DNA of 64,000 bases from an uncultured Spirochaetaceae bacterium (GTDB lineage Bacteria > Spirochaetota > Spirochaetia > DSM-27196 > SLST01), in assembly GCA_964625715.1 (NCBI GenBank), contig CAZVEF010000001.1, positions 52,030-116,029 of the forward strand, written 5' to 3'. Both the position numbers and the translations under genes were made by a program. This document shows, piece by piece, positions 3,411 to 24,205 of this stretch (the stretch's first letter is position 1; every line of letters begins with the position of its first letter). The notes beneath the pieces were generated by a model that made no database searches, was not told the DNA's origin, and was given only the letters and a program-made list of their open reading frames with translations.

Positions 3411-3465
3411 GCGGGTGCGACCGCCGGCCGGCAGCGCGTTCGTCGGGAGCCGCGCCGGCGGGGCG

Positions 3466-5289: not shown

Positions 5290-7608
5290 TCAGAATCCTC
5301 CACCCGAGCCGATGCGGGTCTCGATGCTGATGACCGGGCCGAACATCGGGTAGAGCTCGCCGTTGCGCCTCTCGTATCTGACGTTTCCGGTCTCGTCGCG
5401 GAGGACCGTCGTGGTGACGGTTCCCACGATGTCCATGATGGGGGCGACGGGATAGACGATCTCACCCTTGAGCACGGTATTCGCGTCGAACAGGCGCGCG
5501 CCCTCGAACCCGGTCTTGTCGATCAGCGTCGGAACGAAGCTGGTTCGCTCGTAGGCGAAGCTCGCGCTGATGTCGAGGGGGAGCAGACCTTCACGAAGCT
5601 CGAGACTCGTAAGCAGGTAGTCGTCGTCGCCCATTTCGATCGCGTCGGTTTCCGCACTCCGTGTCCACGGCCAGAGGTAACCGGCGTCCAGCCGGACGAC
5701 CCGTGCGATCGTAAGCCCGGCCTCACCGTAGATCCCGAGCGTCTCGTTCTTGTACTCGCTCGCCCCCGGATTCTGGAGGTAGTCGACCGTCCGGCGGACC
5801 TTGTCGCCGCTCGTGCGGTCGTAGTTCGCGTCGTAGAACGCCGGCTCGAAGATGCCGTGGTCGTTCTGGAACTCGAGTCTGAAGTCGAGCAGCGAGACGT
5901 TTCCGAACACTCCGGAGGCGATGCCGTAGTTGCGCAGCTCGGTACCGGCCGCGGTCTCCTGGATCAGCGCCTGGGTCTGCAAACCCGCGTCGAGCCCACC
6001 CGCCGAACGGCGCAGGTAGGGCAGCAGTCCTCCCACGTCGCCGAAGAGCACGAGCGAGAACGCGTCGCGTTCGATCACCGGCAGGTCGAGATCCAGCCCC
6101 ACGTTGAGGAAGACCGGATCGACGGTGCGCTCGGTCTCGAAGACCGTCGCTCCCTCGTCGTCCGCTTCCGGCAGATCCGAGGCGGGTGCGATGTCTGTGA
6201 CGCCGCTCACGCCGACGGCGAGCGGGAAGCCGTCGAGGGGGCGCGCGTAGAGCCGCGTTCCGAAGATCTCCGGCGCGGCGAGGTCGTTCGTGAGGACCTC
6301 GAAGCCGGCTCGGCCGAAATCGATACCCACGTTGAACCCGATGCGCCGGATCGCGGGGAACTCGATGTCGTTCGCGTAGTTGCGCATGAGCAGCCCGTGC
6401 CCGAGGGTGAGCGTGTTGAGGTTGCCCACCTTGAGGAAGAACGGGTCGCGCATCTCGCCCCATTCGATGAACCTGATCTTGAGCGCGATATCGCCGGTGA
6501 GGTCGCCCATCGCGCCGAGCGTGTCGTTCCGCCAGTCGTGATCGGTGCCGAAGGACCACTCGTCGTTGCCCTCGGGCTTGTACCAATCGTCGCGGTCGAA
6601 GAGATTGCCCGTGTAGATCACCGGGAGGTAGAGTCCGGCGCGGAGCTTGCCGATCCGGAAGGTCGGCTGGGCGACGAGCTTGCTGTACGTGCTGCCTTCG
6701 AGGCTGATCGAGCCGATTTCGAGCTCGAGCACGTCGGTGAGGCCTGCCATGAACTCGTCGACAGGCCCGTCGTCTTCGTCGTCAGCGGTGCTGTCGTCGG
6801 GTTCGGTCGGCGTAGCGGGCTCCTGCGGTTCCACGACGACGGCGTCGCCGGAGTCGACGTCCGAATCGGCCTCGTCGTCCGTCTGTTCGGCCTCGGCCGG
6901 CTCTTCCTCTTCAATCGGATCTTCGTCGGCCGACGGCTCTTCCTCGCCGACGCCGAGCTCCTCGAGTACCTGCTGGCGCGCGTTCTCGGTCTGCTCGGAG
7001 AGTTGCTCGAGCGAGCCGTAGAACTGCTCGGCAACGTCCGCCTGCGCGGCGGCGAACGAGGCGGCGAGCGCGTTGGCGAACTCGTTCGCCTGAAGCGAGA
7101 CGGTCGAGCCGGCCTCGTTCGTGAACTCCACGACCCCTTCGCGCACGGCGACAATCTCGTCGCCGGCCGCGACCTGCGTCACGAAGTCGGTGCCGCGAAC
7201 ACCTCCGACGGCTGTCGGGGTTCGTACCTCGAAGCCTCGTCCGGTGCCGGTGAGGTTCGACACGACGCTCCTCAGACGACCGGTCGCCACCGAGACGACG
7301 TCGTCGCCGGAGGAGGCTCCGCGCTCAAGCACGCTTTCGATCTTGATCTCCGTGCTGTCTGCGAGCTTGAGCGCGTGTCCGTTGGGAAGCAGGATCTCGG
7401 CGAACCCATCGAACGTCTTGACGACGTAGTTCAGATCGAGTCGGTAGCCGAAGTCGAGCAACCCGTCCTGCGAGTCCTGCAATTCGAAGAGCTCGCCGTC
7501 GACGCGTTCGTAGACGCGGACGTCGCCCTCGTAGTAGACGAGCTCCTGCGCGGTTGCAATGCCGCCGAAGAGCGCGAGCACGATGCAAAGTACCGTAATC
7601 CGTCTCAT
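5290..7608 (-). CDS. Secreted FecR-domain protein fused via an acidic linker to an outer-membrane barrel-like domain
   Basis: Start moved to the internal ATG 7608 (MRRITVLCIVLALFGGIATAQ signal peptide, GGAGG 7 nt upstream). FecR-like segment: FAEILLPNGHALKLADSTEI...VRTPTAVGGVRGTDFV. The D/E-rich linker is EEEPSADEDPIEEEEPAEAEQTDDEADSD. The C-terminal half alternates hydrophobic residues and ends ...IETRIGSGGGF, an aromatic terminal residue like OMP beta-signals. Confidence 0.85.
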   Translation of the reverse strand: MRRITVLCIVLALFGGIATAQELVYYEGDVRVYERVDGELFELQDSQDGLLDFGYRLDLNYVVKTFDGFAEILLPNGHALKLADSTEIKIESVLERGASSGDDVVSVATGRLRSVVSNLTGTGRGFEVRTPTAVGGVRGTDFVTQVAAGDEIVAVREGVVEFTNEAGSTVSLQANEFANALAASFAAAQADVAEQFYGSLEQLSEQTENARQQVLEELGVGEEEPSADEDPIEEEEPAEAEQTDDEADSDVDSGDAVVVEPQEPATPTEPDDSTADDEDDGPVDEFMAGLTDVLELEIGSISLEGSTYSKLVAQPTFRIGKLRAGLYLPVIYTGNLFDRDDWYKPEGNDEWSFGTDHDWRNDTLGAMGDLTGDIALKIRFIEWGEMRDPFFLKVGNLNTLTLGHGLLMRNYANDIEFPAIRRIGFNVGIDFGRAGFEVLTNDLAAPEIFGTRLYARPLDGFPLAVGVSGVTDIAPASDLPEADDEGATVFETERTVDPVFLNVGLDLDLPVIERDAFSLVLFGDVGGLLPYLRRSAGGLDAGLQTQALIQETAAGTELRNYGIASGVFGNVSLLDFRLEFQNDHGIFEPAFYDANYDRTSGDKVRRTVDYLQNPGASEYKNETLGIYGEAGLTIARVVRLDAGYLWPWTRSAETDAIEMGDDDYLLTSLELREGLLPLDISASFAYERTSFVPTLIDKTGFEGARLFDANTVLKGEIVYPVAPIMDIVGTVTTTVLRDETGNVRYERRNGELYPMFGPVISIETRIGSGGGF

Positions 7609-7622
7609 AGAAGCCTCCGGTA

Positions 7623-9053
7623 TTAGAAGAGGGAGATCGCCGTCTCGAGCTTGGAGGTGATGACCCACGGATCGTCGCCCGGTTCGGGGAACGGGTCGTA
7701 CTGCAGGTCGTAGACGAGCGAGATCACCGCGCTCTCGATCCGGTAGTTGACGCGCGCTCCGATCACCGAGTCCTCCGGACTTACGAGGTCTGCGAAGTCC
7801 TCGATACCCTTCTTGTCGTAGCTCGCCTCCATGCTGAATCCGCCGAGGATGCCCTCGCCGAGCATGAAGGTGGCGAGCAGATGCGGTTGCTTGAACGTGT
7901 CGTCCGGGTCGGCGCCGCCGAACGGGCCGTCGACGTTCGCGGCAAACACGAGCTGGTCGTCGAGCAGCGAGAACCCGGCACTCGCGAACCAGCCGACGTA
8001 GGAGTCGGTACTGAATCCGTCGACGCCGGCGTAGTAGGCGTACTTCCGGTGTCTGAACAGATCGTAGGACCGATCGAAGTAGACCGGGATGAAGTCCTCG
8101 CCGAGGAAGCGCAGCTGCGCGCCGTAGGTCATCACGCGGAACAGCCGCCCTCCGAAGCCGAGCATGCCGCCGGAGTTACCGCCCTGGTTGACGTAGTCGC
8201 CGAAACCGGCGAGCGAGACGAGGTCGTTGTTGAGCACCGGCATGCGGAAGTCGATGCCCCAGACGAGCGCCTTCGCGGCACTCTGCGACGTGCCTGCCGG
8301 CAGGAAGTCGGATACGCTCGCGCTCGGGTTGTCCTCCAGAGTGTCCTCGACGTAGTGGAACGGCTTGCGATCGCTCACAACCGTGCCTCCGAGCTGCAGG
8401 TTCCGGACGATGGGCAGCGCGGTTGCGGCGAGCGGTCGGACGAAGAGTCTGCTGCCGATCAGGTCGAACACCGCGAGGTTACCCACGAAGGTCTCGACGC
8501 CTGCGAACGGGAAGTCGAAGAGCCGTCCGTCCACGTCCAGGCTCATGCCGAAGATCCGCTGGTCGGGCAGGAACTGCGTATTCGTGTAGCCGCCCATGAT
8601 GAAGCCGTTGCCCAGCAGGCCGTTGTCGACCTGTCCGAGCAGCACGTAGAGCGGGTCGCCCTTCTGCGCCCAGCGGACGTAGCGCAGCTTCGGCAGGTAG
8701 AGCTCGAGGAAGCTCGTCTCGTCGTCCGGTACCCAGTCGGCGGCGCGCACCTCGAACCCGGTGTCGTCTTCGGCGTCGAATCGATAGTTGAGCGTGAGGT
8801 CGAGTCCCAGCCCGAACTTGCCGATGCCGATGTCGGGCGTCAGCCCGACCGACTGGTAGGTGATGGTCTTGTCGGTCGCTTCGGTTCCGTCGTAGTCGGG
8901 GTTCGGGAAGCTCTGGGCGCCAATGGTGATACCCAGCCCGACATCGGGCCCGACTCCTTCGCCTTGCGGTTCGTCGCCTTCCAGGTCTTGCGCGAAAGCG
9001 CCGAGAAGCGCCACGAAGGTCAGAAGCACCACGGATGCGGTCAATCGCTTCAT
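7623..9053 (-). CDS. Secreted outer-membrane barrel-like protein, paralogous to the C-terminal half of 5290..7608
   Basis: GGAGGG RBS and signal peptide MKRLTASVVLLTFVALLGAFAQ. The protein is G/Y/F-rich with an alternating pattern and ends ...SKLETAISLF. Similarity blocks to the neighbouring gene are clear (LRYVRWAQKGDPLYVLLGQVDNGLLGNGFIMGGYTN vs IRFIEWGEMRDPFFLKVGNLNTLTLGHGLLMRNYAN; LIGSRLFVRPL vs IFGTRLYARPL). Confidence 0.85.
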   Translation of the reverse strand: MKRLTASVVLLTFVALLGAFAQDLEGDEPQGEGVGPDVGLGITIGAQSFPNPDYDGTEATDKTITYQSVGLTPDIGIGKFGLGLDLTLNYRFDAEDDTGFEVRAADWVPDDETSFLELYLPKLRYVRWAQKGDPLYVLLGQVDNGLLGNGFIMGGYTNTQFLPDQRIFGMSLDVDGRLFDFPFAGVETFVGNLAVFDLIGSRLFVRPLAATALPIVRNLQLGGTVVSDRKPFHYVEDTLEDNPSASVSDFLPAGTSQSAAKALVWGIDFRMPVLNNDLVSLAGFGDYVNQGGNSGGMLGFGGRLFRVMTYGAQLRFLGEDFIPVYFDRSYDLFRHRKYAYYAGVDGFSTDSYVGWFASAGFSLLDDQLVFAANVDGPFGGADPDDTFKQPHLLATFMLGEGILGGFSMEASYDKKGIEDFADLVSPEDSVIGARVNYRIESAVISLVYDLQYDPFPEPGDDPWVITSKLETAISLF

Positions 9054-9120: not shown

Positions 9121-12100
9121 TCAGAGGCGCAGACGTCCCTCGATCCCCACGCGAAGCCCCACGAGCGTGCCCGGCTCCCCGGCGAAGGTCTGCGTCCCGG
9201 CGCCGAATCCGCCGTGCAGTCGAATCGTTCCCGCCTCGTCGAAGCGCAGGCTCGTTGCGTGCTCCAGACGCGCGAGCAGGCGGTCGCCCGGCGTCTGATC
9301 GTACTCGACGGTCAGGCTCGACTCGTGCTCGATCGTACCCTCGGCCTCCGCGAGCACGCGCGGCAGCAGCGGGCCGGCGAAGCGCTCGGTCGGACGCGAG
9401 CGCAGGTGCGCGAGCCGAACGGTGAGCTGTCTCGTCCCGTCGTCCGGAACGACCGTCGTCACGAAGGTCTCGAGCTCGACCGAACGGTCGTCGGTCCAGA
9501 TGAGCCGGGTCGACTGGCTGAAGCCGATAGCGGTCTCCCACGGTGCCCCGTCGCCGCCGGTGACCTCGAGGCGGGCCCGCGACTGGAACTCGTCGCTGTC
9601 GTAGAAGCCGAACAGCGGCCGCACGCCGAGGCGACCGAAGAGGTTGGGCGCGACGAGCAGCGCTTGGCCCGACAGCTCGTAGGAGCTCGTCGCCGCGTCG
9701 AGGTCGCGCCGCGCCGGCCGCGCGGCGGAGAGCTCCACGCCGGTCGGGACGAGGAGCGACCACGGCGAGCTCGTGATCCCGCGTCGTGCTTCGAGCGAGA
9801 GCTGCGGGCGGTAGCGCGACGCGAGCAAGCCGAGGCTGAGATCCGCCGAGCGCTCCGGGTAGTCGCCGGCGAAGAGCTCGGCGAGGGGGACGAAGGCGAC
9901 GACGAGTGGATAGTCGGCGAGGAGCTCGGCCGCCGCGGCGACGTCGTCGGCCGGGCGGGGTCGGGGTGCGCCTTCGGTCTCGATCGAGAGCTCGCGGCGG
10001 GCCTTGACCGAAACGTCGAACCGGTCGCCGGCGCGCCACGGCACCCCCAGCTCGAGGAAGGTCTCGACGCCGCGCCGGGCCGCCGCGGCGTCGGCGTCGA
10101 AAGACGAGCCGGCCGCGGCGTCGAGCCCGACGCCCGCGAAGGCGAGCGAGCCCTCGAGGCTCGCCGACGCGTCGCGCTGCTGTGGCGAGGCGGTCGGGGC
10201 GAGCCTCGAGAAGCTTCGGGTCCACGCGACCGGGTAGGGGGGGGCACCGTCGGCCGTCGCGGAGGTCTCGCTGAGCTCGGCGTGAGCGCCGACGGTGACG
10301 CCGGGCGAGCGGCGCTCTGCCGGATCCTCGTCCCGGTCTCCGGCAACCTGCGTGGAATCGCGGGTCCGGGCAGCGGTTCCTCCGGCGCTCGCCGAGGCGG
10401 ACCACGCGACCCGGCTCGAGTCGCGCTGAACGCTCACCCAGTCGGTCTCGACGACGCCGATCGCCGGAATCGTGAGCTCGAAGCTCGTCTCGTGCGAGGT
10501 GCCGGGCCCGAAGACGCCGTATCCGGCTTGAAACGAGTCGACCAGTCGCAGCGGGACTACCCGCGGCGCCATCGTGACCTCGTGGCGGCCCTGGAGTCCG
10601 GTGCCCGCCGAGACCGTCCGAGCGTCGAGTCCGGCGGCCGCCTGCGCGCCGAGCACGGTGGCCGAGACGTCGGTCGAGCTCTCGAGGCCGCTTCGCCTCG
10701 CGTCCGGGTCGTCCGGCAAGCTCGCCGTCTCGGCGTGAAGCCGCTGCTCGACGGCAACATCCGAAAGCACGTTCGTCCCGTCGACGGTGATCTCGACATC
10801 CGGCCTCCACGCGAGCTCGGCCTGCGCGACCGCGCCGACGCTCGTCCTCGGTCCCCAGAACGAGAGCTCGTCGAAGAGCACGACCGCCTCCTCGACGCCG
10901 TTCGTCGCGATCTCCACGTCGATGCGGCGCACGACCGCGTCGACGTCGGTCGGCAGCGGAAGCGAGAGCTCGTGCCACGCGCCGTCGGCTACGATCGCCG
11001 GTTCGGCGAGCTCGGCCTCGAAGGCGCCGTCGCCGTCGCTCGCGCGCACCATGATCTCCGCGCCGGCGGCCTGCGCCGACGGCGCGCGGTAGTAGATCCG
11101 CAGCTCCTCGTAGTCGGCAGCCCGGACCGCGGTTGCTCGGCTGAGCGTGATGGTGTCCCCCGTGCCGGCGTCGTCCCAGCCGACCCGGAGCACGCGCTGC
11201 TCCGGGTCCTCGTCGGTCAGCCGGGAGGCGACCTGCGGGAATGCCTTTCCGAGCCGGTCGGCGTTCGCTTCGGTCTCCGGGAAGACGCTCGTCGTGACCT
11301 CCGGAGGGCTCCCGGAGGCTTCGACCGAGAACTCCGACCCGAAGACGTCGATCGCACCCACGACGATCTTCCCGGCTACCGCGTCCCCGGCCGTAGCCGG
11401 CTCGATCACGACGCGCATGGCGCGGGTGTCGGCGAGGCGGCGTGCCTCGGCGGCGGTGAGGTCGATCTCGAGCTCCTGCCAGCCGGCTCCGTCGTCGGTG
11501 AGGTCGTCTTCGTCGACCGGGTGCGCCAAGACGAGGTCGGGGAGCTCGGGGTCGAGTACGCCGTTGCCGTTCGCGTCCTCGCTGTAGGTGAGACCCGCCG
11601 GTGGCGGCGCGCCGGTGGCGAGCGTGAAGCCGTTCGACGAATCGTGGAAGGCAAGCGCGTCTGCTCCGGTGTCGCGCGTGCCGTCGCCGTCGAGGTCCTC
11701 GCCGATCGCGCCGAGCTCGAACGTCAGCCGGGCGGCCTCCGGGGAGGCCTCGACGACGCGGTACGGCACGACGATCCGGCGCGCATCCGAGAGGTCGGTG
11801 CCGCGGCCACCGTCGATGCGGACGAGACCAGCGACCCAGCTCCGGTCGGAAGGGATCTCGTAGTCGAACACCGCGACCGTCCCGGCGTAGTCGTCGTCGG
11901 GCGGCGTGCTCGCCGGGTACGGGCCGCCGCGTCCGCCGGCGGCGTACTCGGAGGGGGACACCGCCTGAGGGTCGGCGGTGTAGGGGAGGTAGCTGCGGTC
12001 GCCGAGCGCGTTTACGCTCAGGTGGTCGGCAAAGTGCAGGAACCCGCGTCCGCCGGCGGAGAGGTCGGGGCCGGGGCCGGCGTCGAGGCTGCGCGGGGCG

Positions 12101-13941
12101 AGGAAGAGCGCGGTCGGCGAGACCGGAAAGGAACGCGCACCGTCGTTCATCCCGGCCACGCGAAGCACGCCGGAGGTGTCAGGGCTCGAAAGCGAGACCG
12201 CGCCGGCGAGGTGCGCGTCGAGCTCGCTCGGCGGAGGGGTGCGCCACGAGGAGCTTCGGGTCTCCACCGAACCCGATAGCGTGAGGCGTCCGGGGTATTC
12301 GTCGGCGCGCGTCGAGTAACGTGCCCGCGAGGGTTTCAGACGAGCGCCGAGCGCGAGCTGCGCGTTCGTCCCCGGTGCGAGCTCGAAGCGGTTGCCGCTC
12401 GCGAACAGCAGATCTTCCGCGCCGGAGGCGGCGGAGGTACGGAAGGAGACGCGCACGACGTCGGTGCGGCGCAGCGGAGTATCGAAGACGATGCGTCCCG
12501 AATCCTCGACGACGAACCGCGTCTCCACCGTGCCGTTCCGTTCGATCCGGACGCTGCCGGGGATGAACTCCTCGGGCAGCTCGATCGTCTCGGCCGGCGT
12601 GACGCTGCGGAACACGAGGTCGGGCGTCTGCGGCGGCTCGGCGGGCGCCGGCCCGTAGATCCCGGGAACCGGGCGCTCGGCGAGCTCCGAGGCGAGCGGG
12701 TAGCGGTTCTCGAAGGCGCGCGGATCGCCGGCGAGCGAGCCGACCGTCACGGTCTCGCGGGCGTCGGAGACGACGAGGTCGAGCGAGCTCGGGTAGCGCG
12801 AGCCGGGGGCCGCCTCGAGCTCCACGGTGCCGCCGGCGGACTCCGGACGCTCGTACGTCGCGGCGGTCGCGAACGGCGAGAACCGGCCGGGCTGGTGGAT
12901 CAGGAACGCCTCGCGGTCCGTGCCGTCGCCGGTGAGCGTGACGGTGAGCTCGTCGGGATCGAGCGGCTCGAACAGCTCGGCGTAGTTGCGCAGCTCGGTG
13001 GACTCGAAGCTGAAGTCGAGCACGGTGTCGGGATCGGGCCGGCCGTCGGCGTCGAGGCCGAAGCAGGAAGCTCTGCCGAGCGCAGCGTCTCCGATCGGCA
13101 CGCCTCCGGCCTCGTAGTAGACGAGCAGGCGCGTAGTCGGCGCCTCCCGGAGGCTGAACACGCCGTCGGCAAGTGAAAAGACGACCTCGGTGTCCAGGTC
13201 GAGGAGACGGTAGCGCCGACCGTCGCCGTCGGTAAAGTCGCCGCTCGGGCTCTCCAGGTAGAGCTCGAGGGAATCGAGGCTACCGTCGGGCAGGACGAAG
13301 TGCCGGTTGCGTTCGTACTCACTCGCCGACACGCGCGTCTCGCTGACGATCCCGCCATCCGCGTAGACGATCTCCTCGCGCTCACTCGGCGCGTACCGCA
13401 CCATGAGCTCGTGCGTGCTGCGCCCGGTGCGAAACGCGGCGCTCGCGCCCGGCGCGTCCTGGCCTACCGAACCGGTCTCGTCGCCGAAGTCGAGGAAGGG
13501 GTAGGTGCCGATCCCGATCGCCGTGTTCCCCGCGAGTACCGACTGCACCGTCTCGTCCTCGCGGCCCGCGTATCCGAAGAGGATCGTCGACTCCTCTATC
13601 TGCTCGCTCACGGTGGTTTCGAAGAAGTAGCGCTGCAGGAGCCACAGCGAGAGCGTGAGGTTGACCTGTTGCTCGAAGGGAACCGACTCGAGCCCCGGAA
13701 AGTCGTAGCCGGGAAGCGAGCGCAGCGATCCGTCGTCGGTGCGGCTCATGAGCCAGCCGACCGCCGGCGCGAAGCCGGTGGTCCAGGTACCGGTTGCGAA
13801 CAGAGACACATCGGCATCCCCTATCTCGAAGTCGTAGAGCGCAGACGGAGCCTCGGTCTCGAAGGGATTCGGCGGTGCATCGGCGGCGAGCGGGACGAGG
13901 CCGAGGGCTGCGAGGGCGAGGAGGGCTATGCGGGAACGCAC
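9121..13941 (-). CDS. Giant (1606 aa) secreted / outer-membrane protein of unknown function
   Basis: Uninterrupted ORF with GC3-rich codon usage and a GTG start. The signal peptide is MRSRIALLALAALGLVPLAADA. There are no internal TM helices, and the protein is rich in beta-type G/S/T/D/alternating segments. It ends ...GLRVGIEGRLRL. Confidence 0.9.
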   Translation of the reverse strand: MRSRIALLALAALGLVPLAADAPPNPFETEAPSALYDFEIGDADVSLFATGTWTTGFAPAVGWLMSRTDDGSLRSLPGYDFPGLESVPFEQQVNLTLSLWLLQRYFFETTVSEQIEESTILFGYAGREDETVQSVLAGNTAIGIGTYPFLDFGDETGSVGQDAPGASAAFRTGRSTHELMVRYAPSEREEIVYADGGIVSETRVSASEYERNRHFVLPDGSLDSLELYLESPSGDFTDGDGRRYRLLDLDTEVVFSLADGVFSLREAPTTRLLVYYEAGGVPIGDAALGRASCFGLDADGRPDPDTVLDFSFESTELRNYAELFEPLDPDELTVTLTGDGTDREAFLIHQPGRFSPFATAATYERPESAGGTVELEAAPGSRYPSSLDLVVSDARETVTVGSLAGDPRAFENRYPLASELAERPVPGIYGPAPAEPPQTPDLVFRSVTPAETIELPEEFIPGSVRIERNGTVETRFVVEDSGRIVFDTPLRRTDVVRVSFRTSAASGAEDLLFASGNRFELAPGTNAQLALGARLKPSRARYSTRADEYPGRLTLSGSVETRSSSWRTPPPSELDAHLAGAVSLSSPDTSGVLRVAGMNDGARSFPVSPTALFLAPRSLDAGPGPDLSAGGRGFLHFADHLSVNALGDRSYLPYTADPQAVSPSEYAAGGRGGPYPASTPPDDDYAGTVAVFDYEIPSDRSWVAGLVRIDGGRGTDLSDARRIVVPYRVVEASPEAARLTFELGAIGEDLDGDGTRDTGADALAFHDSSNGFTLATGAPPPAGLTYSEDANGNGVLDPELPDLVLAHPVDEDDLTDDGAGWQELEIDLTAAEARRLADTRAMRVVIEPATAGDAVAGKIVVGAIDVFGSEFSVEASGSPPEVTTSVFPETEANADRLGKAFPQVASRLTDEDPEQRVLRVGWDDAGTGDTITLSRATAVRAADYEELRIYYRAPSAQAAGAEIMVRASDGDGAFEAELAEPAIVADGAWHELSLPLPTDVDAVVRRIDVEIATNGVEEAVVLFDELSFWGPRTSVGAVAQAELAWRPDVEITVDGTNVLSDVAVEQRLHAETASLPDDPDARRSGLESSTDVSATVLGAQAAAGLDARTVSAGTGLQGRHEVTMAPRVVPLRLVDSFQAGYGVFGPGTSHETSFELTIPAIGVVETDWVSVQRDSSRVAWSASASAGGTAARTRDSTQVAGDRDEDPAERRSPGVTVGAHAELSETSATADGAPPYPVAWTRSFSRLAPTASPQQRDASASLEGSLAFAGVGLDAAAGSSFDADAAAARRGVETFLELGVPWRAGDRFDVSVKARRELSIETEGAPRPRPADDVAAAAELLADYPLVVAFVPLAELFAGDYPERSADLSLGLLASRYRPQLSLEARRGITSSPWSLLVPTGVELSAARPARRDLDAATSSYELSGQALLVAPNLFGRLGVRPLFGFYDSDEFQSRARLEVTGGDGAPWETAIGFSQSTRLIWTDDRSVELETFVTTVVPDDGTRQLTVRLAHLRSRPTERFAGPLLPRVLAEAEGTIEHESSLTVEYDQTPGDRLLARLEHATSLRFDEAGTIRLHGGFGAGTQTFAGEPGTLVGLRVGIEGRLRL

Positions 13942-14005: not shown

Positions 14006-14932
14006 ATGAACGCTGAACAGCAGAAGGCATCGGCATTCGTCTCCAGGCTCCTCGCCAACCCCGCGCTGAAGGCGTTGACGCCGCTGCAACGCGAGGAACA
14101 GATCATCCAGTTCCTCCATACCAACGCGGCGCAGCTCGCGCCGACGCTGAGCTCGCAGGCGTTCTTCCCCGGGAAGTCCTGGAACCAGATAATAGCACTT
14201 CTGATGCAGGCTCTCATGGAGCACGTCGACGGCGAGCTCATGCCGCAGCTTGACACCATCGTATCGGGTATTCGCTTCGGGTTCATGAGCGTGCTGCGAC
14301 AGCAGGCCGCCGCCGGCGGTGATGCGGGTGTGCAGGTGGGCTCCTTCATCCGCGGGGTGCTCGCGCGTATGGATGCGCGGCGCACCTTCACCGGCGCGCA
14401 TGCAGCGCTCGCCTATGGATTCGTCCATCGATACATGGACCCCATCTGGGCCCGCAAGAGCTACATCCATTTCGAGCTGACGAAGGTACAGCGGCTGAAG
14501 CTCGGCAAGGAGGACGTCGCCTCGATGATCGAGGTGACGCTTCTGTTGAAGCCGGTCGTGAACCTCGTTTCGGCGGTCGGGGGCGGTGTTCAGTCGGAGC
14601 AGACCTCCGGAATCGTCGACCAACGGTTCGCCGAGAAGGTCTTCGCGGCGGCGAAGAAACAGCTGCCTGCGGTGCCGGACCAGGTGGTCAGAAGCGGCGT
14701 CAACGCCAACGTATCGTACGTGGAGAACCGCTTCATCGAGGCGACCGCCCGACTCGCGGCGGTCTTCTCGGCGCGCGCACGGAGCTACCAGCCGAACGTG
14801 GATGTCGACCGCGGCGCCGACAGCCCGGACAAGAGCTGGCTCAGCGTCGCGAGGAGGAACTACAGATTCTACGGCTTCGACCTCAAGCTCCTCGACGAGC
14901 TCTATTCGATAGCCACGGAGAACGGGTGGTAG
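14006..14932 (+). CDS. Hypothetical cytoplasmic protein (308 aa), no recognisable motif
   Basis: ATG start and GC3-rich codons. The stop is separated from the next gene's ATG (14934) by a single nucleotide, so the two are probably co-transcribed and possibly translationally coupled. I cannot name a family. Confidence 0.8.
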   Translation: MNAEQQKASAFVSRLLANPALKALTPLQREEQIIQFLHTNAAQLAPTLSSQAFFPGKSWNQIIALLMQALMEHVDGELMPQLDTIVSGIRFGFMSVLRQQAAAGGDAGVQVGSFIRGVLARMDARRTFTGAHAALAYGFVHRYMDPIWARKSYIHFELTKVQRLKLGKEDVASMIEVTLLLKPVVNLVSAVGGGVQSEQTSGIVDQRFAEKVFAAAKKQLPAVPDQVVRSGVNANVSYVENRFIEATARLAAVFSARARSYQPNVDVDRGADSPDKSWLSVARRNYRFYGFDLKLLDELYSIATENGW

Positions 14933-14933
14933 T

Positions 14934-16055
14934 ATGAGTAAGACACGAGCATTCCTGGAAAACCTCGTCATCGTCGCGATCGTCCTCGTTCTCATCCAGA
15001 CCTTTCTCGAGGACTACGCGGTGCTCGCCGGATGGTCGTGGGACGTGCGACGGGCGCTGCTGTTCACCGGTTTCGCGTTCGACCTCATGTTCACGATCGA
15101 GTTCCTGACGCGGCTCTACGTCGCGTTCGTCAACCGGAGAACGGGGATCTACTTCTGGTACGAGCGGGGCTGGGTCGATCTGCTCGCCTCCATCCCGCTG
15201 CTCCTGTTCGCCTCCGGGCCGCAGGTACTCGCGTATCTCAGCGGATCGGCGACGGTCGTCGGCTTCGCCGGGATCCTGAACGTGCTCAAGGTGGTGAAGG
15301 CGATCCGCATCGCGCGGATCCTCAGGCTTCTGCGTGTGCTCAAGATCTTCGCCCGCATTCGCAATACCGAGTCGCAGATGGCACAGCGTCACGTCGCCAG
15401 GGTCGCCACCACCGCGGTCACCGTGGTTATCGGCGGTGTCCTCGTGCTGAGCGTGCTCTTCAGTGCTTTCGGCGTGCCGAGTCTCGAGACGCGCTATCAG
15501 GAACAAACGCTCGAGCTGCTCGAGCGAGTGGGCTCCTTTGATCTGTCGAACCGTTCGGCGGTGAACGAGGTCGAGGATCTCGCCGAGGTGGAAACGTCGA
15601 TCCTCGTCGTGCAGCGCGACGGTCGAACGGTCTACAGCCGGTACGAGAACGAGCACTACGAGACCCATTTCGGGCCGATCGACTACGGGTACGGCGAGCG
15701 CGGAGATGCCCGCGTGTTCTTCGATCTGAGACCGATGAACCAGGACCAGGCGCGCGCGAATCTCGTGTACTTCGCGGTGGTCGTGCTGCTCGTTCTCGTG
15801 TTCATGCTCTTCTACAGCCCGCACTTCGCGATGACGGTCTCCGATCCTGTCCACGTGATGCGACGCGGGATGAACGAGAAGGGGTACAACCTGGAGGTGA
15901 AGATCCCCCGGCTCTACCGCGACGACGAGGTCTACCGGCTCGGACGCCTGTACAACGAGGTCTTTCTTCCGCTGAAGGACCGCGCGGGCGGCGGGGACGA
16001 TGCGGATCTGCTCGATCTCAAGATGGATGACATCCGGGACATCCTGAACGAGTAG
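14934..16055 (+). CDS. Voltage-sensor-domain (Ion_trans-like S1-S4) protein lacking a pore, fused to TM-periplasmic loop-TM-HAMP
   Basis: S4 has K/R at every third position: LKVVKAIRIARILRLLRVLKIFARIR. S2 and S3 carry acidic counter-charges (FAFDLMFTIEFLTR; GWVDLLASIP). S5 is followed by a hydrophilic loop of about 95 aa, then TM6 (LVYFAVVVLLVLVFMLFY). A HAMP-like segment follows (SDPVHVMRRGMNEKGYNLEVKIPRLYRDDEVYRLGRLYNEVF). No output domain is present. Confidence 0.85.
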   Translation: MSKTRAFLENLVIVAIVLVLIQTFLEDYAVLAGWSWDVRRALLFTGFAFDLMFTIEFLTRLYVAFVNRRTGIYFWYERGWVDLLASIPLLLFASGPQVLAYLSGSATVVGFAGILNVLKVVKAIRIARILRLLRVLKIFARIRNTESQMAQRHVARVATTAVTVVIGGVLVLSVLFSAFGVPSLETRYQEQTLELLERVGSFDLSNRSAVNEVEDLAEVETSILVVQRDGRTVYSRYENEHYETHFGPIDYGYGERGDARVFFDLRPMNQDQARANLVYFAVVVLLVLVFMLFYSPHFAMTVSDPVHVMRRGMNEKGYNLEVKIPRLYRDDEVYRLGRLYNEVFLPLKDRAGGGDDADLLDLKMDDIRDILNE

Positions 16056-16397: not shown

Positions 16398-17105
16398 CTA
16401 CGCCGGCAGGAGATAGAGGTCCGGTAGACGGTGCTCCCCGGACATCTCGAGCGCGTCCGGGATCTGCGCGGTGCTCGTGCGCTCGATCGAGAAGAAGTGG
16501 CGCAGCGGCTCGTACGAATCGGCCTCGACCCGGATCTCGAACTCGAAGGTGCGTTCGATGCCGTGGGATTCGGCCGGCACCGGAGTCGGCCAGAACAGGT
16601 AGGTCCCGGCGGTGTTGGGTACGATCTCGTAGGGATTCTGCCAGCGCGAATCGAGCATCGTGACCCGCTCGTTGTCGAGCAGGAGAAGGACCTCCACGTT
16701 CGTGACGAGCTCGAAGCTCACCCCGTTGAAGAGCCGGCCCTTGATCGTGGGCAGGTAGAAGTGCGGTCCGGAGACCGATGAGACCGACGTGTGTTCGTCA
16801 CTGTAGAAGGAGCGACGCACGCTGCTGACGCGTCGAAGTCCCTCGTGCGCGAGCGTGACGAGATCGACGATGAGCTGCTGGTCCCTGCCGAGCTCGAGCT
16901 CGGTGTGCGCCTGGCCGCGCGCGGAGCTGACGTAGCGCTGCTGGACCCGATTGAGCACGTAGCAGGCGGCGTCCATCCGGCACTCCGGCGATGTGCAGTA
17001 CTTGGGGGCGTCCGCCGCTTCGTCCTCGTCGCAGATTTCGTCGATCACACGGAGTACCGATTCCTCCATTACGTTGTGGATGACGAGCGACTTATGCGTT
17101 GCCAC
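16398..17105 (-). CDS. ComFB-domain protein with a C-terminal extension of about 150 aa of unknown function
   Basis: The N-terminus (NVMEESVLRVIDEICDEDEAADAPKYCTSPECRMDAACYVLNRVQQRYVSS) fits the ComFB pattern: NxMEexV...C.C..C..D..a.aLN.l.p.Y. I do not recognise the remainder. Confidence 0.8.
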   Translation of the reverse strand: MATHKSLVIHNVMEESVLRVIDEICDEDEAADAPKYCTSPECRMDAACYVLNRVQQRYVSSARGQAHTELELGRDQQLIVDLVTLAHEGLRRVSSVRRSFYSDEHTSVSSVSGPHFYLPTIKGRLFNGVSFELVTNVEVLLLLDNERVTMLDSRWQNPYEIVPNTAGTYLFWPTPVPAESHGIERTFEFEIRVEADSYEPLRHFFSIERTSTAQIPDALEMSGEHRLPDLYLLPA

Positions 17106-17550
17106 CCGCGGCCCCCTTGCCGAGCTCGCTCTTGAGCTCGAGCACCTCGGCCAGCGATTCCACCGCCTCGCGGTAGTCGCGGACCGTCTCCTTGAGAGCG
17201 TAGTAGTTGAGGCCGGCGTAGTAGATCTTGGAAAAGACGGTGAGCGTGATCTCTCGCTGCGTGGTCATCAGCGTGTTGTAGCAGCCGTACTCGTAGCAGA
17301 TCTGCATAACGTCTTCGAGTTTGCCCTGGACGAAATCTGCCAGGTTACTCGAAAAGCTGAACGTATAGGCGAGCTCGAGGAACTTGCTGTCACGGTCTAT
17401 GTAGACCGCGCCCTGGAATCCGTCGGTCGACTCGAATGCCGCCGAGTACGTCTCCTCGAGAAACTCGCCGTCGAGCATCTCAAAGCCCAGCTCCCGCAGG
17501 AGAACACCCACTCGGCGAACCCGTTCCTTCATCAACTTGGAGTACTTCAT
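17092..17550 (-). CDS. Hypothetical protein, possibly YbjN / secretion-chaperone-like fold
   Basis: 152-aa ORF with coding-type GC3 bias whose 3' end overlaps the ComFB gene start by 14 nt. The alternating beta/alpha pattern (AVYIDRDSKFLELAYTFSF ... LTVFSKIYYAGLNYYALKE) is only weakly reminiscent of YbjN. Confidence 0.65.
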   Translation of the reverse strand: MKYSKLMKERVRRVGVLLRELGFEMLDGEFLEETYSAAFESTDGFQGAVYIDRDSKFLELAYTFSFSSNLADFVQGKLEDVMQICYEYGCYNTLMTTQREITLTVFSKIYYAGLNYYALKETVRDYREAVESLAEVLELKSELGKGAAGGNA

Positions 17551-17596: not shown

Positions 17597-18883
17597 TCAC
17601 GGAGACTCGACCGCCTCGTCGAGGAGCTGCCGATGCGCGTCGAGGTCGGCCGCCACGCCGGGCTCGAGGATCATACGGATCCTGCGAAGCGCGCGGGTGA
17701 AGTCCTCGATCACGTGGGGCGTGAAGACGCTACCGGCATCCGGGTAGTCGATGACCCGGTCCTCGTCGATGACCGGGAAAGTGACCTCGAAGCTCACCGG
17801 TTCCGGGATGTCGACGATGATGTCGAGCGGTTCGATCTCGCGTCCGAGCCGCCGCGATATCAGGCGGTGGAGGCGCTTCTCGACTGCGGCGCGGTCCGCG
17901 AGATTCGCCAGGCGTTGGTGCGCCGGGTTCGTCTCGTCGAAGCCCAGATCGGCGGTGGGAACGTAGAGCTGACGGTTGTAGACGCGGCGGATGAGATCGA
18001 ACGGCCGCTCCTCGTGCGAGCAGAATGCGGCGTAGAAGGTTTCGTCGTTCAGACCGTAGAGGTCTCGCTCGTCGATGAACCCCTCGGTGAGCCCATGGTA
18101 GAGCCCGACCTTGATCATCGCGGTCGCGACGCGAACGGTACGGTGCCAGTAGACGGCGCGATACATGAGGTACTTGCTGAACAGAACGTTCTCCACCGCC
18201 GAGATACCCGAACGTTCGAGCGCGATCCCGTCCGCGCCGTTGGGGCGCAAACGGCTCAGCGCAAAGTCGATGTCCTGCGTTCCGTAGGGCACACCGCAGA
18301 AATACGCATCGCGGTTGAGGTAGTCGAGCTTGTCCGGATCGAGCGAGCCCGACAGCAGCCTGCGAAAGAGTCGCACCTCGGGTCTGCCGTCGCCGTCGAG
18401 CGATTCGTCGATGATGCGCGCGACGAGATCGGGGTCGGTGCGCAGGTCGTCCCGGATGCGCCGAGCGAGGTCTCCCTCGCGCACGATCTCGGCTGCGAGC
18501 GCCTCGTGATCCGCGAGCGGGAGCTCCTTGAGGCTGTGCGTGAAGGGAAAGTGGCCCAGGTCGTGGAGCAGCGCTGCTGCGAGATAGGCGCTCACCAGCT
18601 CACGGTTGATCGCGGGGGCCTCGTCGTAGATGAGAAGCGCCCGGATCATGCGGTAGGCGGTGTGGTAGACGCCCAGACTGTGAGCGAGTCGGGTGTGCGT
18701 CGCGCCGGGGTAGACGAGGTGGGTCGGGCCGAGCTGTTTGATCCGGCTGAGCTGCTGGAATTCGACCGAGTTGACGATCGATACGAGCCCATCGCTGAGA
18801 TAGATGTGGCCCCACAGCGGATCCCTGATGGGGCGAGTGTAATCGTGATCGAGATGCCGGAGGACATGATCCTTTACACGCAT
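17597..18883 (-). CDS. HD-domain phosphohydrolase (dNTP triphosphohydrolase / SAMHD1-like family)
   Basis: Trimmed from the 808-aa ORF to ATG 18883 (MRVKDHVLRHL...IRDPLWGHIYL). Motifs: HTRLAHSLGVYH, LLHDLGHFPFTH, DKLDYLNRDAYFCG. Confidence 0.9.
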   Translation of the reverse strand: MRVKDHVLRHLDHDYTRPIRDPLWGHIYLSDGLVSIVNSVEFQQLSRIKQLGPTHLVYPGATHTRLAHSLGVYHTAYRMIRALLIYDEAPAINRELVSAYLAAALLHDLGHFPFTHSLKELPLADHEALAAEIVREGDLARRIRDDLRTDPDLVARIIDESLDGDGRPEVRLFRRLLSGSLDPDKLDYLNRDAYFCGVPYGTQDIDFALSRLRPNGADGIALERSGISAVENVLFSKYLMYRAVYWHRTVRVATAMIKVGLYHGLTEGFIDERDLYGLNDETFYAAFCSHEERPFDLIRRVYNRQLYVPTADLGFDETNPAHQRLANLADRAAVEKRLHRLISRRLGREIEPLDIIVDIPEPVSFEVTFPVIDEDRVIDYPDAGSVFTPHVIEDFTRALRRIRMILEPGVAADLDAHRQLLDEAVESP

Positions 18884-18910
18884 TGCCGCCAATCTATAGT
18901 ATGCCCACAG

Positions 18911-19645
18911 GTGCGTCCACCATTTCGCCGTACGATCACCGCGCTTCTGGCGATCACCCTCATCCTCGCGCAGATCGGTTGCGCCCGTCGCTCCGGCGAC
19001 GGGGATGAGCCCGCTGGGGCGTCGGCGGCCGAACGCTCGGAGGGGGAAGGTCAGCCGATGCGCCTCACCGATGCCGGGCGCGGGCGCCGCCCGACGACCC
19101 CGGGCGAGGAGGCGTCCCCGGGCGTCTCCGCCTCTACGCCCGGCGACGAGGACCGTCGCGCGGCCTCGGCTGAGCGGGATGTCTCTATCGACGCGCGCGA
19201 CGAGGCGTTCGCCTCGCGCCGGCTCGGGGCGCCGCCGCACTACCCGTCTGACTTCGTGATCGGCTCGCTCGCCACGAGCGGCCTCTCCCGGCCCGAGCGG
19301 GCGGCACGGCAACACGCCCGCGTTTTCCTGCAAACCGTGCTCGCAGACGGTCGGCCGCCGGAGGACGCCTTCATCGAACCGGCGCCCGGCGCGCTCGCGG
19401 TGATCGATGATCTCGCTTCGACCGGTCTCGCCGCCGCCGGCGTTCGCGTCGCTCGACCCGTTGCGCTTCCGGGTGGGGAGCGATCGATTGCCTACCGCGT
19501 GCTCGGCGAGACGGGCGGCGCTCACGGCGAGGTCATTCTGGAAATGGCCGAGGGGCAGTGGTATATTTCGGATATTCAGGCTATTGCGTCGAGTCGGGGT
19601 ACGGACGACCTGTTCGACCCCGCCTTTCAATCTCCCCGCCCTTAA
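18911..19645 (+). CDS. Putative lipoprotein (244 aa)
   Basis: C-terminal part of ORF 17537..19645. The in-frame GTG at 18911 gives MRPPFRRTITALLAITLILAQIGC, a signal peptide with a lipobox-like LAQIGC. A low-complexity linker precedes a globular C-terminal domain. Confidence 0.7.
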   Translation: MRPPFRRTITALLAITLILAQIGCARRSGDGDEPAGASAAERSEGEGQPMRLTDAGRGRRPTTPGEEASPGVSASTPGDEDRRAASAERDVSIDARDEAFASRRLGAPPHYPSDFVIGSLATSGLSRPERAARQHARVFLQTVLADGRPPEDAFIEPAPGALAVIDDLASTGLAAAGVRVARPVALPGGERSIAYRVLGETGGAHGEVILEMAEGQWYISDIQAIASSRGTDDLFDPAFQSPRP

Positions 19646-19655
19646 TGGAGCGTCG

Positions 19656-20903
19656 GTGGCAAACGAGATCAAGCGGATAGAGAGAGAGTTCATCCTGAAG
19701 AACGTCCTCGAACAGCGCACGCCGCTCGAGGTCCACCTCGGTGCCGAACGCCTCCAGGCGTTCGTCGAGCGGATAGACGACGAGCGGCTGTGGATCCGTC
19801 TTGCCGAAGACATCTTTCCCGAGGATGCGGACGAGATCACGGTCTTTTTCCGCTTCCGCAATAATCCCATGACGTTCACGTCGCGAGTTCTCGAGAGCTC
19901 GGAGGACGTAGCCGAGGTAGAGCAACCGACCGAGCTCTTTCGCGACCTCTCGCGGACCTTCGAGCGGATCAAGGCGCCCCGTGACGTCAGCGTCTCGTTC
20001 CTGTTCAAGGGCCAGCAGGTCAAGCTCGACTATCCAGACTCCGATCAGTACGAGCCGGCGGAAGATCCCGGGGCCGACCCCGGCTTCGACGCGTCGAAGA
20101 TTTCCGAGCTCCTGCAGGCGTTCCGCGAGCGCGCAGCCCGGTTCGCGACCGAGAACAAGATCGTCATGTTTCGCGAACGTCGCCCGCAGAGCTTCCAGGA
20201 GAAGCTGATCGCCAGATCGGGCAGGATTCTCGTACTCCCGTTCTACGCGGCCGAGGCGCAGATCAGGTCCGTGGAGGTCCGCGAGCGAATCCTCACGCAG
20301 GACGAGATCATATCGCTGAAGGCCGAAGACGGCGAAGACATGTTCAGCGTGCTCGAGCAGATCGGGAAGATCGTCGAGGCGAACCGTCAGAGGCGCCTGT
20401 GGCACGAGCTCTACTGCCCTATCCTCTACCGGCAGTACGTCGTGGGCTACATGTACCTCATCCGTGCGGACAACGACCGGGAGCGCTTCGAGCCGGGGGT
20501 ATTCGACTTCGTGCTCCAGTTCGGGCGCGTTCTCGCGTTCTCGCTGAAGGCGAACGGCTACTTCAAGGCCGAGCCGCAGGTTGACGAGTTCGGCGCGGCC
20601 GAGCTCATCGACATCTCCGGATCGGGCCTGCTGTTCAGCTACCCGCCCGAGGGGCCGGATATCCTGCTGTACACGGATCTCGACCTGAAGATCTCGCTCG
20701 GGCAGACCACGATCCCGTCGCGCGGCCGCGTCATGCGCAAGTACAGCGACTCCGGGCGAGTCTACATCGCGATCCAGTTCATCCAGCTCGATCCCGACGA
20801 CATGGAGACGCTGTTTCAGCACATCTACGGTTCCAGCTACCGGGGCGACGTCGACACGGTTGGAGCCGCCGATCCGAAGAACCTCCCGATCGACGAGCTC
20901 TAG
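19656..20903 (+). CDS. PilZ-domain protein with a large N-terminal domain
   Basis: In-frame GTG at 19656, with GGAG at 19647-19650, 11 nt after the lipoprotein stop. The C-terminal PilZ barrel motif is AELIDISGSGLLF...GRVMRKYSDSGRVYIAIQF (DxSxxG). No RxxxR lies within about 40 aa upstream. Confidence 0.8.
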   Translation: MANEIKRIEREFILKNVLEQRTPLEVHLGAERLQAFVERIDDERLWIRLAEDIFPEDADEITVFFRFRNNPMTFTSRVLESSEDVAEVEQPTELFRDLSRTFERIKAPRDVSVSFLFKGQQVKLDYPDSDQYEPAEDPGADPGFDASKISELLQAFRERAARFATENKIVMFRERRPQSFQEKLIARSGRILVLPFYAAEAQIRSVEVRERILTQDEIISLKAEDGEDMFSVLEQIGKIVEANRQRRLWHELYCPILYRQYVVGYMYLIRADNDRERFEPGVFDFVLQFGRVLAFSLKANGYFKAEPQVDEFGAAELIDISGSGLLFSYPPEGPDILLYTDLDLKISLGQTTIPSRGRVMRKYSDSGRVYIAIQFIQLDPDDMETLFQHIYGSSYRGDVDTVGAADPKNLPIDEL

Positions 20904-24118: not shown

Positions 24119-24146
24119 ATTCCCCGTTAAACTCGCGCGAAGGCGA

Positions 24147-24175
24147 TGGTCAACCTCTCGAAAACCGGCTATAAT
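24147..24175 (+). promoter_or_regulatory. Candidate promoter of the coiled-coil gene
   Basis: TGGTCA (24147-24152), 17 nt spacer, TATAAT (24170-24175), 30 nt upstream of ATG 24206. Confidence 0.3.
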
Positions 24176-24205
24176 TGCCGTGACAAGTTCTTCGGGGGGG
24201 GAACG

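Follow-up and report, generated by a model that had tools for sequence, protein, structure and literature searches.

Several described proteins share parts of the architecture reported here. Voltage-sensing phosphatases (VSPs) carry a fused PTEN-like phosphatase. Hv1 is a voltage-sensor domain (VSD) of four transmembrane (TM) helices with three S4 arginines and an S1 aspartate filter; it has neither a pore domain nor S5/S6, conducts protons, and dimerises by means of a C-terminal cytoplasmic helix. In the complex of sensory rhodopsin II with its transducer HtrII (SRII-HtrII), the movement of a helix in the membrane is passed on to the cytoplasmic side. Af1503 ends after its HAMP domain and has no output domain, and methyl-accepting chemotaxis proteins (MCPs) recruit soluble partners (CheR/CheB) by a flexible linker and a short C-terminal motif. 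The present work concerns a gene in a window of 64,000 nucleotides (nt), the whole stretch of DNA analysed, from an uncultured Spirochaetaceae bacterium (GenBank assembly GCA_964625715.1, contig CAZVEF010000001.1, positions 52,030 to 116,029 of the forward strand). Its product, called the sensor below, joins a predicted Kv-type VSD to a chemoreceptor-like membrane module and has no ion pore domain. It is encoded directly behind the gene of a 308-aa protein, for which a role as its partner is strongly supported.

According to recent reviews, VSDs coupled to non-channel functions comprise a few eukaryotic proteins (VSP, Hv1, TMEM266 and SLC9C1). The full-text literature searched held no description of a bacterial VSD fused to a HAMP domain or another signalling module, which agrees with the initial annotation of this DNA, where the architecture had been considered new.

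Predicted Voltage Sensor and Absence of a Pore Domain

The sensor gene is an intact open reading frame (ORF) whose 373-aa product is conserved over its full length among homologues (Table 1). A Pfam match to Ion_trans (PF00520) covered residues 7-179 (35.9 bits against a cutoff of 25, E = 6e-9) and profile positions 3-151 of 241, corresponding to S1 to S5. AlphaFold2 (AF2), run on the family alignment as a monomer, returned a predicted local distance difference test score (pLDDT) of 79.4 and a predicted template modelling score (pTM) of 0.71, with helices at residues 2-32 (S1), 36-66 (S2), 79-103 (S3), 112-141 (S4) and 148-178 (S5).

Table 1. Coordinates of the sensor gene, its parts and the surrounding genes, in positions of the window.
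Feature	Position (nt)	Strand	Basis
Sensor-transducer gene, 373 aa	14934..16055, including stop codon	+	ORF reading, Pfam, homologues, alignment, AF2
Predicted voltage-sensor domain S1-S4, residues 2-141	14937..15356	+	Pfam Ion_trans; Kv1.2 alignment
S4, residues 114-141, seven K/R at every third position	15273..15356	+	Read from sequence
S4-S5 linker, residues 142-154, invariant S-x-M-A-Q-R-H	15357..15395	+	Conservation 2.91 bits
TM5, residues 155-178, hydrophobic	15396..15467	+	AF2; 1.98 bits
Periplasmic alpha/beta domain, residues 179-270, in place of a pore loop	15468..15743	+	AF2
TM6, residues 274-293, continuous with the first cytoplasmic helix	15753..15812	+	AF2; 2.06 bits
HAMP-like helix-connector-helix, residues 294-350: YSPHFAMTVSDPVHVMRRGMN / connector EKGYNLEVKIPRLYRDD / EVYRLGRLYNEVFLPLKDR	15813..15983	+	
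Variable acidic linker and C-terminal amphipathic helix DLKMDDIRDILNE (residues 361-373)	15984..16052	+	Co-occurrence of tail and partner
Soluble all-alpha partner protein, 308 aa, family not recognised	14006..14932	+	Synteny, AF2
DUF503 gene, 95 aa	16059..16346	+	Pfam, E = 2e-26
1606-aa protein, N-terminal signal-like sequence, no Pfam domain	9121-13941	-	
ComFB-domain protein, 235 aa	16398-17105	-	
152-aa protein, family not recognised, overlaps ComFB gene	17092-17550	-	
808-aa ORF, HD and HD_assoc_2 at residues 445-757	17597-20023	-	Pfam
792-aa FecR-domain protein	5290-7668	-	
476-aa protein, no Pfam match	7623-9053	-	
1104-aa protein with amphipathic helical repeats	24146-27460	+	

In an alignment of 62 full-length homologues, residues D50, F53, E56 and R60 of S2 and D82 of S3 were invariant; acidic residues had been noted earlier in S2 and S3. 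The aromatic and acidic S2 residues and the acidic S3 residue of a charge-transfer centre are thus represented by F53, E56, R60 and D82. The charges of S4 are K119, K122, R125, R128, R131, R134 and K137, followed by R141; the six from K122 to K137 were invariant in the same alignment, and K119 was present in at least 90% of its members. The initial annotation had described six K/R at every third position; the periodicity holds, and the count is corrected to seven. Measured over 145 family members, conservation within the protein peaked in S4 (3.27 bits); S3 reached 3.06 bits.

Neither phmmer with the full-length sequence nor the family profile retrieved a significant match from the PDB; at E ≤ 10, only weak matches to the VSDs of Kv1.2, Kv3.1 and hERG appeared. 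The best PDB match of the family profile was Kv1.2 (E = 0.017), and the family is distant from all solved channels. The profile alignment nevertheless pairs F53/E56/R60 with F233/E236/R240 of Kv1.2 and D82 with D259, and the seven S4 charges align one-to-one with R1-R6/K7. Judged by these residue patterns and the Ion_trans match, residues 1-145 are predicted to be a canonical, intact Kv-type voltage sensor, as had been proposed at the outset.

The sensor has no ion pore domain. Neither the Ion_trans profile nor the AF2 model places a P-loop, a selectivity filter or an S6 after S5. A re-entrant pore helix between S5 and TM6 is missing: the Ion_trans match stops at position 151 of 241, and an alpha/beta domain is modelled instead. 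A conserved pore-lining S6 with a gate is likewise missing, as TM5 and TM6 are hydrophobic (charged, amide or His residues make up 2.5% of TM5 and 7% of TM6) and are the least conserved helices. Residues 181-275 were checked for a pore domain on these grounds, and the earlier claim that pore helix, filter and S6 are lacking was borne out.

The soluble insert (residues 184-264 in the AF2 model) has the order helix-helix-hairpin-helix-hairpin and no match in Pfam or the PDB. The loop after S5, first described as hydrophilic and beta-rich, is thus of mixed alpha/beta structure in the model. No other part of the protein is conserved so little (1.35 bits over the 145 members), although the loop holds a few nearly invariant residues, e.g., the FGPxDYGY stretch and F..D. 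Conservation was highest in S4, S3, the S4-S5 linker and both cytoplasmic helices. In channels, it is normally the pore elements that are conserved best; the sensor family, in which the pore-equivalent parts are conserved least, has the reverse pattern. Moreover, the periplasmic domain is absent from a Brevinematales-type variant of 291-295 aa (variant D; L132, L144, L151, L154), in which a hairpin of about 10 residues joins TM5 to TM6, while the VSD, TM5/TM6, the cytoplasmic module, the tail motif (DDYSDLL) and the partner gene are all kept. A periplasmic cue, raised in the initial annotation as a possible additional input, is weakened as a core input by both observations.

Cytoplasmic Module after TM6

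In the AF2 model, TM6 runs into the cytoplasm as part of a single helix (residues 266-314), followed by a 17-residue connector (315-331) and a second helix (332-352). This layout of helix, connector and helix directly after a TM segment fits a HAMP domain. The first cytoplasmic helix, connector and second helix had conservation values of 2.92, 2.44 and 2.93 bits, respectively, over the 145 members. When the segment from the window was compared in isolation with the Pfam HAMP profile (PF00672), it scored 15.3 bits (E = 0.025, profile positions 3-46 of 53), under the cutoff of 25 bits; the genuine HAMP domain of E. coli PhoQ, used for calibration, scored 21.5 bits and also fell below this cutoff. 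Sub-threshold matches to PF00672 were obtained for 13 of 23 Spirochaetales members (best E = 3.3e-4), and no other family recurred. Among 52 partner sequences, taken to gauge the noise, the Pfam family that recurred most often matched only 5.

By ungapped coordinates, P305, E332 and N341 would fall on PF00672 positions 9, 36 and 45, equivalent to P185, E212 and N221 of EnvZ, and N341 in the second helix was invariant in the alignments made. The module is accordingly called HAMP-like here and is possibly a divergent HAMP domain. A local hidden Markov model of the segment, searched against the ORFs of about 1.6 Mb of spirochaete loci and the window, had no match outside the family, the HAMP content of that DNA being not known. 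Foldseek comparison of the full-length model with the PDB gave no match below E = 0.1; a model of the sensor kinase WalK came first, a weak match (E = 0.15), followed by G-protein-coupled receptors and helical noise.

No cytoplasmic output domain (MCPsignal, or HisKA with HATPase_c) was matched by Pfam in the 373-aa protein. The chain ends 23 aa after the second cytoplasmic helix, rather than about 30 aa past the module as first estimated, and AF2 models this end as a disordered stretch followed by a terminal helix (residues 364-372). The overall arrangement read in the initial annotation, a VSD fused to a TM helix, a periplasmic domain, a further TM helix and a two-helix cytoplasmic module with no output domain, is supported.

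Partner Gene and C-Terminal Tail

The ATG of the sensor gene lies 1 nt past the stop codon of the ORF for the 308-aa protein. In 136 of 158 loci, a gene of this family immediately preceded the sensor gene in the same orientation. The distance from its stop codon to the sensor ATG had a median of 8 nt and lay between -10 and +30 nt in 111 of 125 loci; the two genes are predicted to be co-transcribed and are probably translationally coupled. Clustering of neighbouring ORFs identified the 308-aa gene as the sole recurrent neighbour of the sensor in distant orders, and no other neighbour was retained in Leptospirales, Brachyspira, Exilispira and Brevinematales.

The sensor C-terminus varies together with this gene. 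Sensors accompanied by the 308-aa protein continue into a variable hydrophilic linker and then the motif L-(S/K)-(M/L)-D-D-phi-x-x-phi, whereas those of paralogues lacking the partner stop just past LPxKRR. Tail motif and partner gene were both present in 121 loci and both absent in 17; the 11 discordant loci are explained by regular-expression misses, cut-off contigs, or motifs followed by acidic extensions. In one locus (L013), what is left of the partner gene is a C-terminal remnant ending GNFQFFGFGAKILHECYSMAYNGW directly before the stop codon, and the sensor has lost its tail motif (3270-3600 and 4560-4740 of that locus), a possible natural co-loss of tail and partner on a single contig of a metagenome-assembled genome (MAG). 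The upstream gene had been named as one candidate partner, and phylum-wide synteny, the short intergenic gap and the co-occurrence with the tail now strongly support the 308-aa protein in this role. The C-terminal tail is proposed as a candidate docking site for it.

The 308-aa protein was modelled by AF2 as all-alpha with good confidence (pLDDT 88.3, pTM 0.88). Its family comprises 477 homologues, all hypothetical or unnamed with a single exception, which bears a stray automated JGI label. It had no sequence match in Pfam, NCBIfam, PADLOC or the PDB, and 52 family members compared with Pfam at E ≤ 10 gave noise only. An HD-GYP fold was considered and rejected, the best Foldseek match having E = 1.5 and a TM-score of 0.26.

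Distribution and Variants of the Family

Relatives of the sensor are almost confined to Spirochaetota, where at least about 250 species genomes, spread over the phylum, carry them. The search retrieved 682 homologues, and 118 of the best 120 measured 356-411 aa at 94-100% coverage, the other two being fragments of 276-277 aa. Residues 181-373 alone returned 198 clusters at 50% identity; nearly all members were 350-400 aa long with the match at about residues 185-375. Apart from two spurious repeat proteins, longer members added acidic low-complexity tails only, and no fusion of the non-VSD half to a kinase, MCP or cyclase output was found among the clusters inspected, each of which had the architecture of the sensor or consisted of a fragment or a low-complexity repeat. 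NCBI labels relatives "ion transporter".

Genome scans yielded 197 and 76 sensor loci, which span Spirochaetales (Alkalispirochaeta, Marispirochaeta, Salinispira, Sediminispirochaeta), Leptospirales, Brachyspira, Exilispira and Brevinematales. When 185,579 bacterial and archaeal species, each represented by a single genome, were scanned with a degenerate DNA pattern for a 15-residue S4 peptide, 77 stretches matched; every labelled one was from a spirochaete, and one match lay in an unclassified record. Nearly all records were environmental MAGs, the exceptions being Salinispira pacifica and Ca. Marispirochaeta associata JC231. Treponema, Borrelia, named Leptospira species, S. aurantia and other model spirochaetes were not among the matches listed in these pattern-based scans, which does not prove that they lack the gene.

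Two loci carried labels of other phyla. The Myxococcota-labelled MAG (L069) held a complete locus of the spirochaete type with the entire Spirochaetales synteny block, and the Ca. Methylomirabilis-labelled MAG (L135) held a short sensor relative without the neighbours; both contigs are probably mis-binned.

A paralogous subfamily of 352-366 aa comprises VSD, insert, TM6 and helix-connector-helix, without the tail and without a partner gene (L141, 4983-6041; also L110, L123, L128, L133, L134, L139, L140, L142, L145, L146, L148 and L150). Several genomes hold both the tailed and the tail-less form. At nine tail-less loci, the next gene encodes a TM, coiled-coil, polysaccharide-deacetylase-like protein (6048-7316 in L141). 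Shorter relatives of 308-321 aa (L135, L138, L147, L149) end right after TM6 and have neither helix-connector-helix nor partner gene.

Genomic Context

The window is ordinary chromosomal DNA of about 65% G+C, with genes for MutL, GrpE-DnaK-DnaJ, PurD/PurF, ABC transporters and TPR proteins, among others. Within Spirochaetales, the sensor belongs to a syntenic block of seven genes, in the order giant protein / 308-aa protein, sensor, DUF503 / ComFB, 152-aa protein, HD protein. Outside this order, the 308-aa gene is the one member of the block kept beside the sensor. The DUF503 ORF begins 3 nt past the sensor stop codon and had been listed as a possible interactor; because its position is conserved in Spirochaetales only, it is probably outside the functional unit. 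DUF503, ComFB, the 152-aa protein, the HD protein and the 1606-aa giant protein were all rejected as partners, their synteny being confined to Spirochaetales. A role in anti-phage defence was also rejected: PADLOC gave no match for the sensor, the 308-aa protein or DUF503, and the locus is chromosomal and syntenic.

The gene of the giant protein is divergent from the partner gene and syntenic throughout Spirochaetales but not in other orders. The ComFB and 152-aa genes are convergent with the operon and syntenic in most, though not all, Spirochaetales loci. The 808-aa HD ORF is probably over-extended at its N-terminus; its relatives are called at 430-447 aa. In one locus (L002), the source gene caller placed a gene on the opposite strand over DUF503. 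Just beyond the giant protein lie the FecR-domain gene and, next to it, the gene of the 476-aa protein, which recurs in L001 and L002. The repeats of the 1104-aa protein are apolipoprotein-like but below threshold (64 bits against a cutoff of 90).

Proposed Mechanism and Alternative Explanations

We consider it on balance probable that the gene product senses and transduces voltage without conducting ions and passes the signal to a tethered partner of unrecognised fold. Within this model, voltage responsiveness, dimerisation, HAMP-type signalling, tail-partner binding and any downstream output are what we infer. With a Kv-type S1-S4 and seven gating charges, S4 would be moved by the membrane potential, and its movement would pass through the conserved S4-S5 linker to the TM5/TM6 pair. 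The linker is predicted to lie at the membrane face where the cytoplasmic helix starts with its conserved YSPHF. In a dimer, TM5 and TM6 would probably form a central four-helix membrane bundle, by analogy with chemoreceptors, sensor kinases and SRII-HtrII. TM6 continues into the juxtamembrane helix-connector-helix, which would change state, and this state may be read by the 308-aa protein held via the amphipathic tail. The tethered partner could then be activated, released or repositioned; the tether may be likened to that of CheR/CheB on the MCP pentapeptide.

A number of results weigh against this model, most of them at the HAMP-like module. A full-length Pfam scan gave no HAMP match at E ≤ 1. 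The proline of the first helix is absent from many members of the distant branches, where just 1 of 30 segments matched PF00672 (E = 0.18). Profile-profile alignment with hhalign, for which the target profiles were thin, covered 15 columns of helix 2 only against seven E. coli HAMP domains (E = 0.078, probability <1%) and 17 columns, again in helix 2, against EnvZ alone (E = 0.16); the register of the helix-2 matches to the E. coli domains was correct, but they were not significant. A segment-profile search of the PDB retrieved no HAMP entry. The initial annotation had called this module HAMP and had accepted that failure in profile searches would count against it. That has happened in part: the matches stay below threshold in the branch to which the window belongs, do not rise above noise in distant branches, and lack significance in profile-profile comparison, so that the call is not confirmed as it was made. 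For true HAMP homology, we would put the chances somewhat better than even. Other points concern the remaining steps. S4 is modelled with lower confidence than its neighbours (pLDDT 56-76 over residues 101-150), and dimerisation is an assumption, the predicted model being a monomer. Binding of the tail to the partner is suggested by their co-occurrence. Foldseek and profile searches with the 308-aa protein found no PDB fold match, so no output can be named, and in the gene neighbourhoods examined no chemotaxis, flagellar or two-component genes were linked to the sensor.

Alternative explanations were weighed against the same data. That the protein still conducts ions, through the VSD in the manner of Hv1 or of omega currents or through a non-canonical TM5/TM6 pore, with the cytoplasmic helices and partner being regulatory, is suggested by its membership of the Ion_trans superfamily, by the NCBI label and by the precedent of Hv1, where a pore-less VSD conducts. 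The label, however, is an automatic transfer from the Pfam match, and the absence of P-loop, selectivity filter and S6, together with purely hydrophobic and poorly conserved TM5 and TM6 (2.5% and 7% polar), argues against a pore; the insert that would replace it is wholly missing from variant D. S4 carries an unbroken series of seven charges and no mid-S1 Asp was read in the sequence, unlike in Hv1. We therefore regard conduction as unlikely. The possibility raised at the outset of a pseudogene, derived from a longer sensor or channel by frameshift or truncation, is refuted for practical purposes: hundreds of homologues have the same length at 94-100% coverage, the conservation implies strong purifying selection, and the C-terminal half was never seen joined to further domains, long members adding acidic low-complexity tails only.

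The arrangement of TM helix, periplasmic domain, TM helix and HAMP-like module, as in sensor kinases and MCPs, and the few nearly invariant periplasmic residues (FGPxDYGY, F..D) would also fit an ordinary chemoreceptor-like sensor of a periplasmic ligand, in which the VSD fold is a relic serving as an anchor or oligomerisation scaffold. This we find improbable, given that S4 and its charges are the most conserved part and the periplasmic domain the least, that the charge-transfer-centre residues are invariant, and that variant D has lost the periplasmic domain and retains VSD, cytoplasmic module, tail and partner. Equally doubtful in our view is a VSD that senses another membrane variable (lipid composition, thickness or tension), or a pair with a structural or assembly role in the envelope. 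The confinement of the family to a phylum with an unusual envelope, the giant secreted protein adjoining it in Spirochaetales and the lack of linked signalling genes speak for such a role; yet the giant-protein linkage is lost in other orders, and seven periodic charges with an intact charge-transfer centre are what is expected of electric-field sensing.

Possible Significance

Goulbourne and Greenberg, in work of 1981 and 1983, reportedly tied membrane potential to chemosensory transduction in Spirochaeta aurantia, to go by the titles. Membrane potential as a carrier of behavioural signals in spirochaetes is an old idea. Because it is essentially confined to spirochaetes, the present family is a concrete candidate for letting membrane potential carry such signals along very long cells. 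A 2020 review of spirochaete motility estimated that CheY-P needs about 5 s to diffuse over 10 µm, too slow for the rapid coordination of flagellar motors farther apart than 10 µm, and left open how motors at opposite cell ends are coordinated. Since a voltage change spreads along the cell almost instantly, a polar voltage sensor-transducer could be the missing link. That the two-gene unit is the first prokaryotic voltage-to-biochemistry signalling system, in which a non-conducting VSD would report membrane potential to a dedicated cytoplasmic effector, and possibly a receiver of electrical signals in free-living spirochaetes, is a long shot. If true, it would mean that bacteria can read membrane potential as a signal, and it would offer a compact prokaryotic model of pore-less electromechanical coupling and a natural scaffold for voltage-controlled synthetic signalling.

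Comparison with Known Systems

The sensor shares with Kv1.2/Shaker-type channels the S1-S4 sensor, the F-x-x-E-x-x-x-R motif of S2, the S3 Asp, seven S4 charges and a following S5. It differs from them in having no pore helix, filter or S6, in place of which stands a dispensable alpha/beta insert. Hv1 is likewise a VSD protein without a pore domain and with a C-terminal cytoplasmic helix, but the spirochaete sensor has six TM helices, two more than Hv1, and seven S4 charges, with nothing to suggest a conduction path.

In the eukaryotic proteins Ci-VSP, TMEM266 and SLC9C1, a VSD controls a cytoplasmic non-channel output. The spirochaete family is bacterial, has two extra TM helices and a HAMP-like relay, and its output is apparently a separate, tethered protein; Pfam identifies no phosphatase domain such as defines a VSP. 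The succession of TM helix, periplasmic domain, TM helix and helix-connector-helix resembles the input modules of Af1503, MCPs and sensor kinases. In the sensor, however, HAMP membership is unproven, there is no DHp/CA or MCPsignal domain, and a VSD precedes the module; the partner, unlike those tethered to MCPs, belongs to an unrecognised family.

The closest working analogy is SRII-HtrII. Both systems place a membrane sensor next to a transducer of two TM helices, the second of which extends into a HAMP or HAMP-like module. The spirochaete protein combines sensor and transducer in a single chain, would respond to voltage and not to light, and has no MCP signalling domain.

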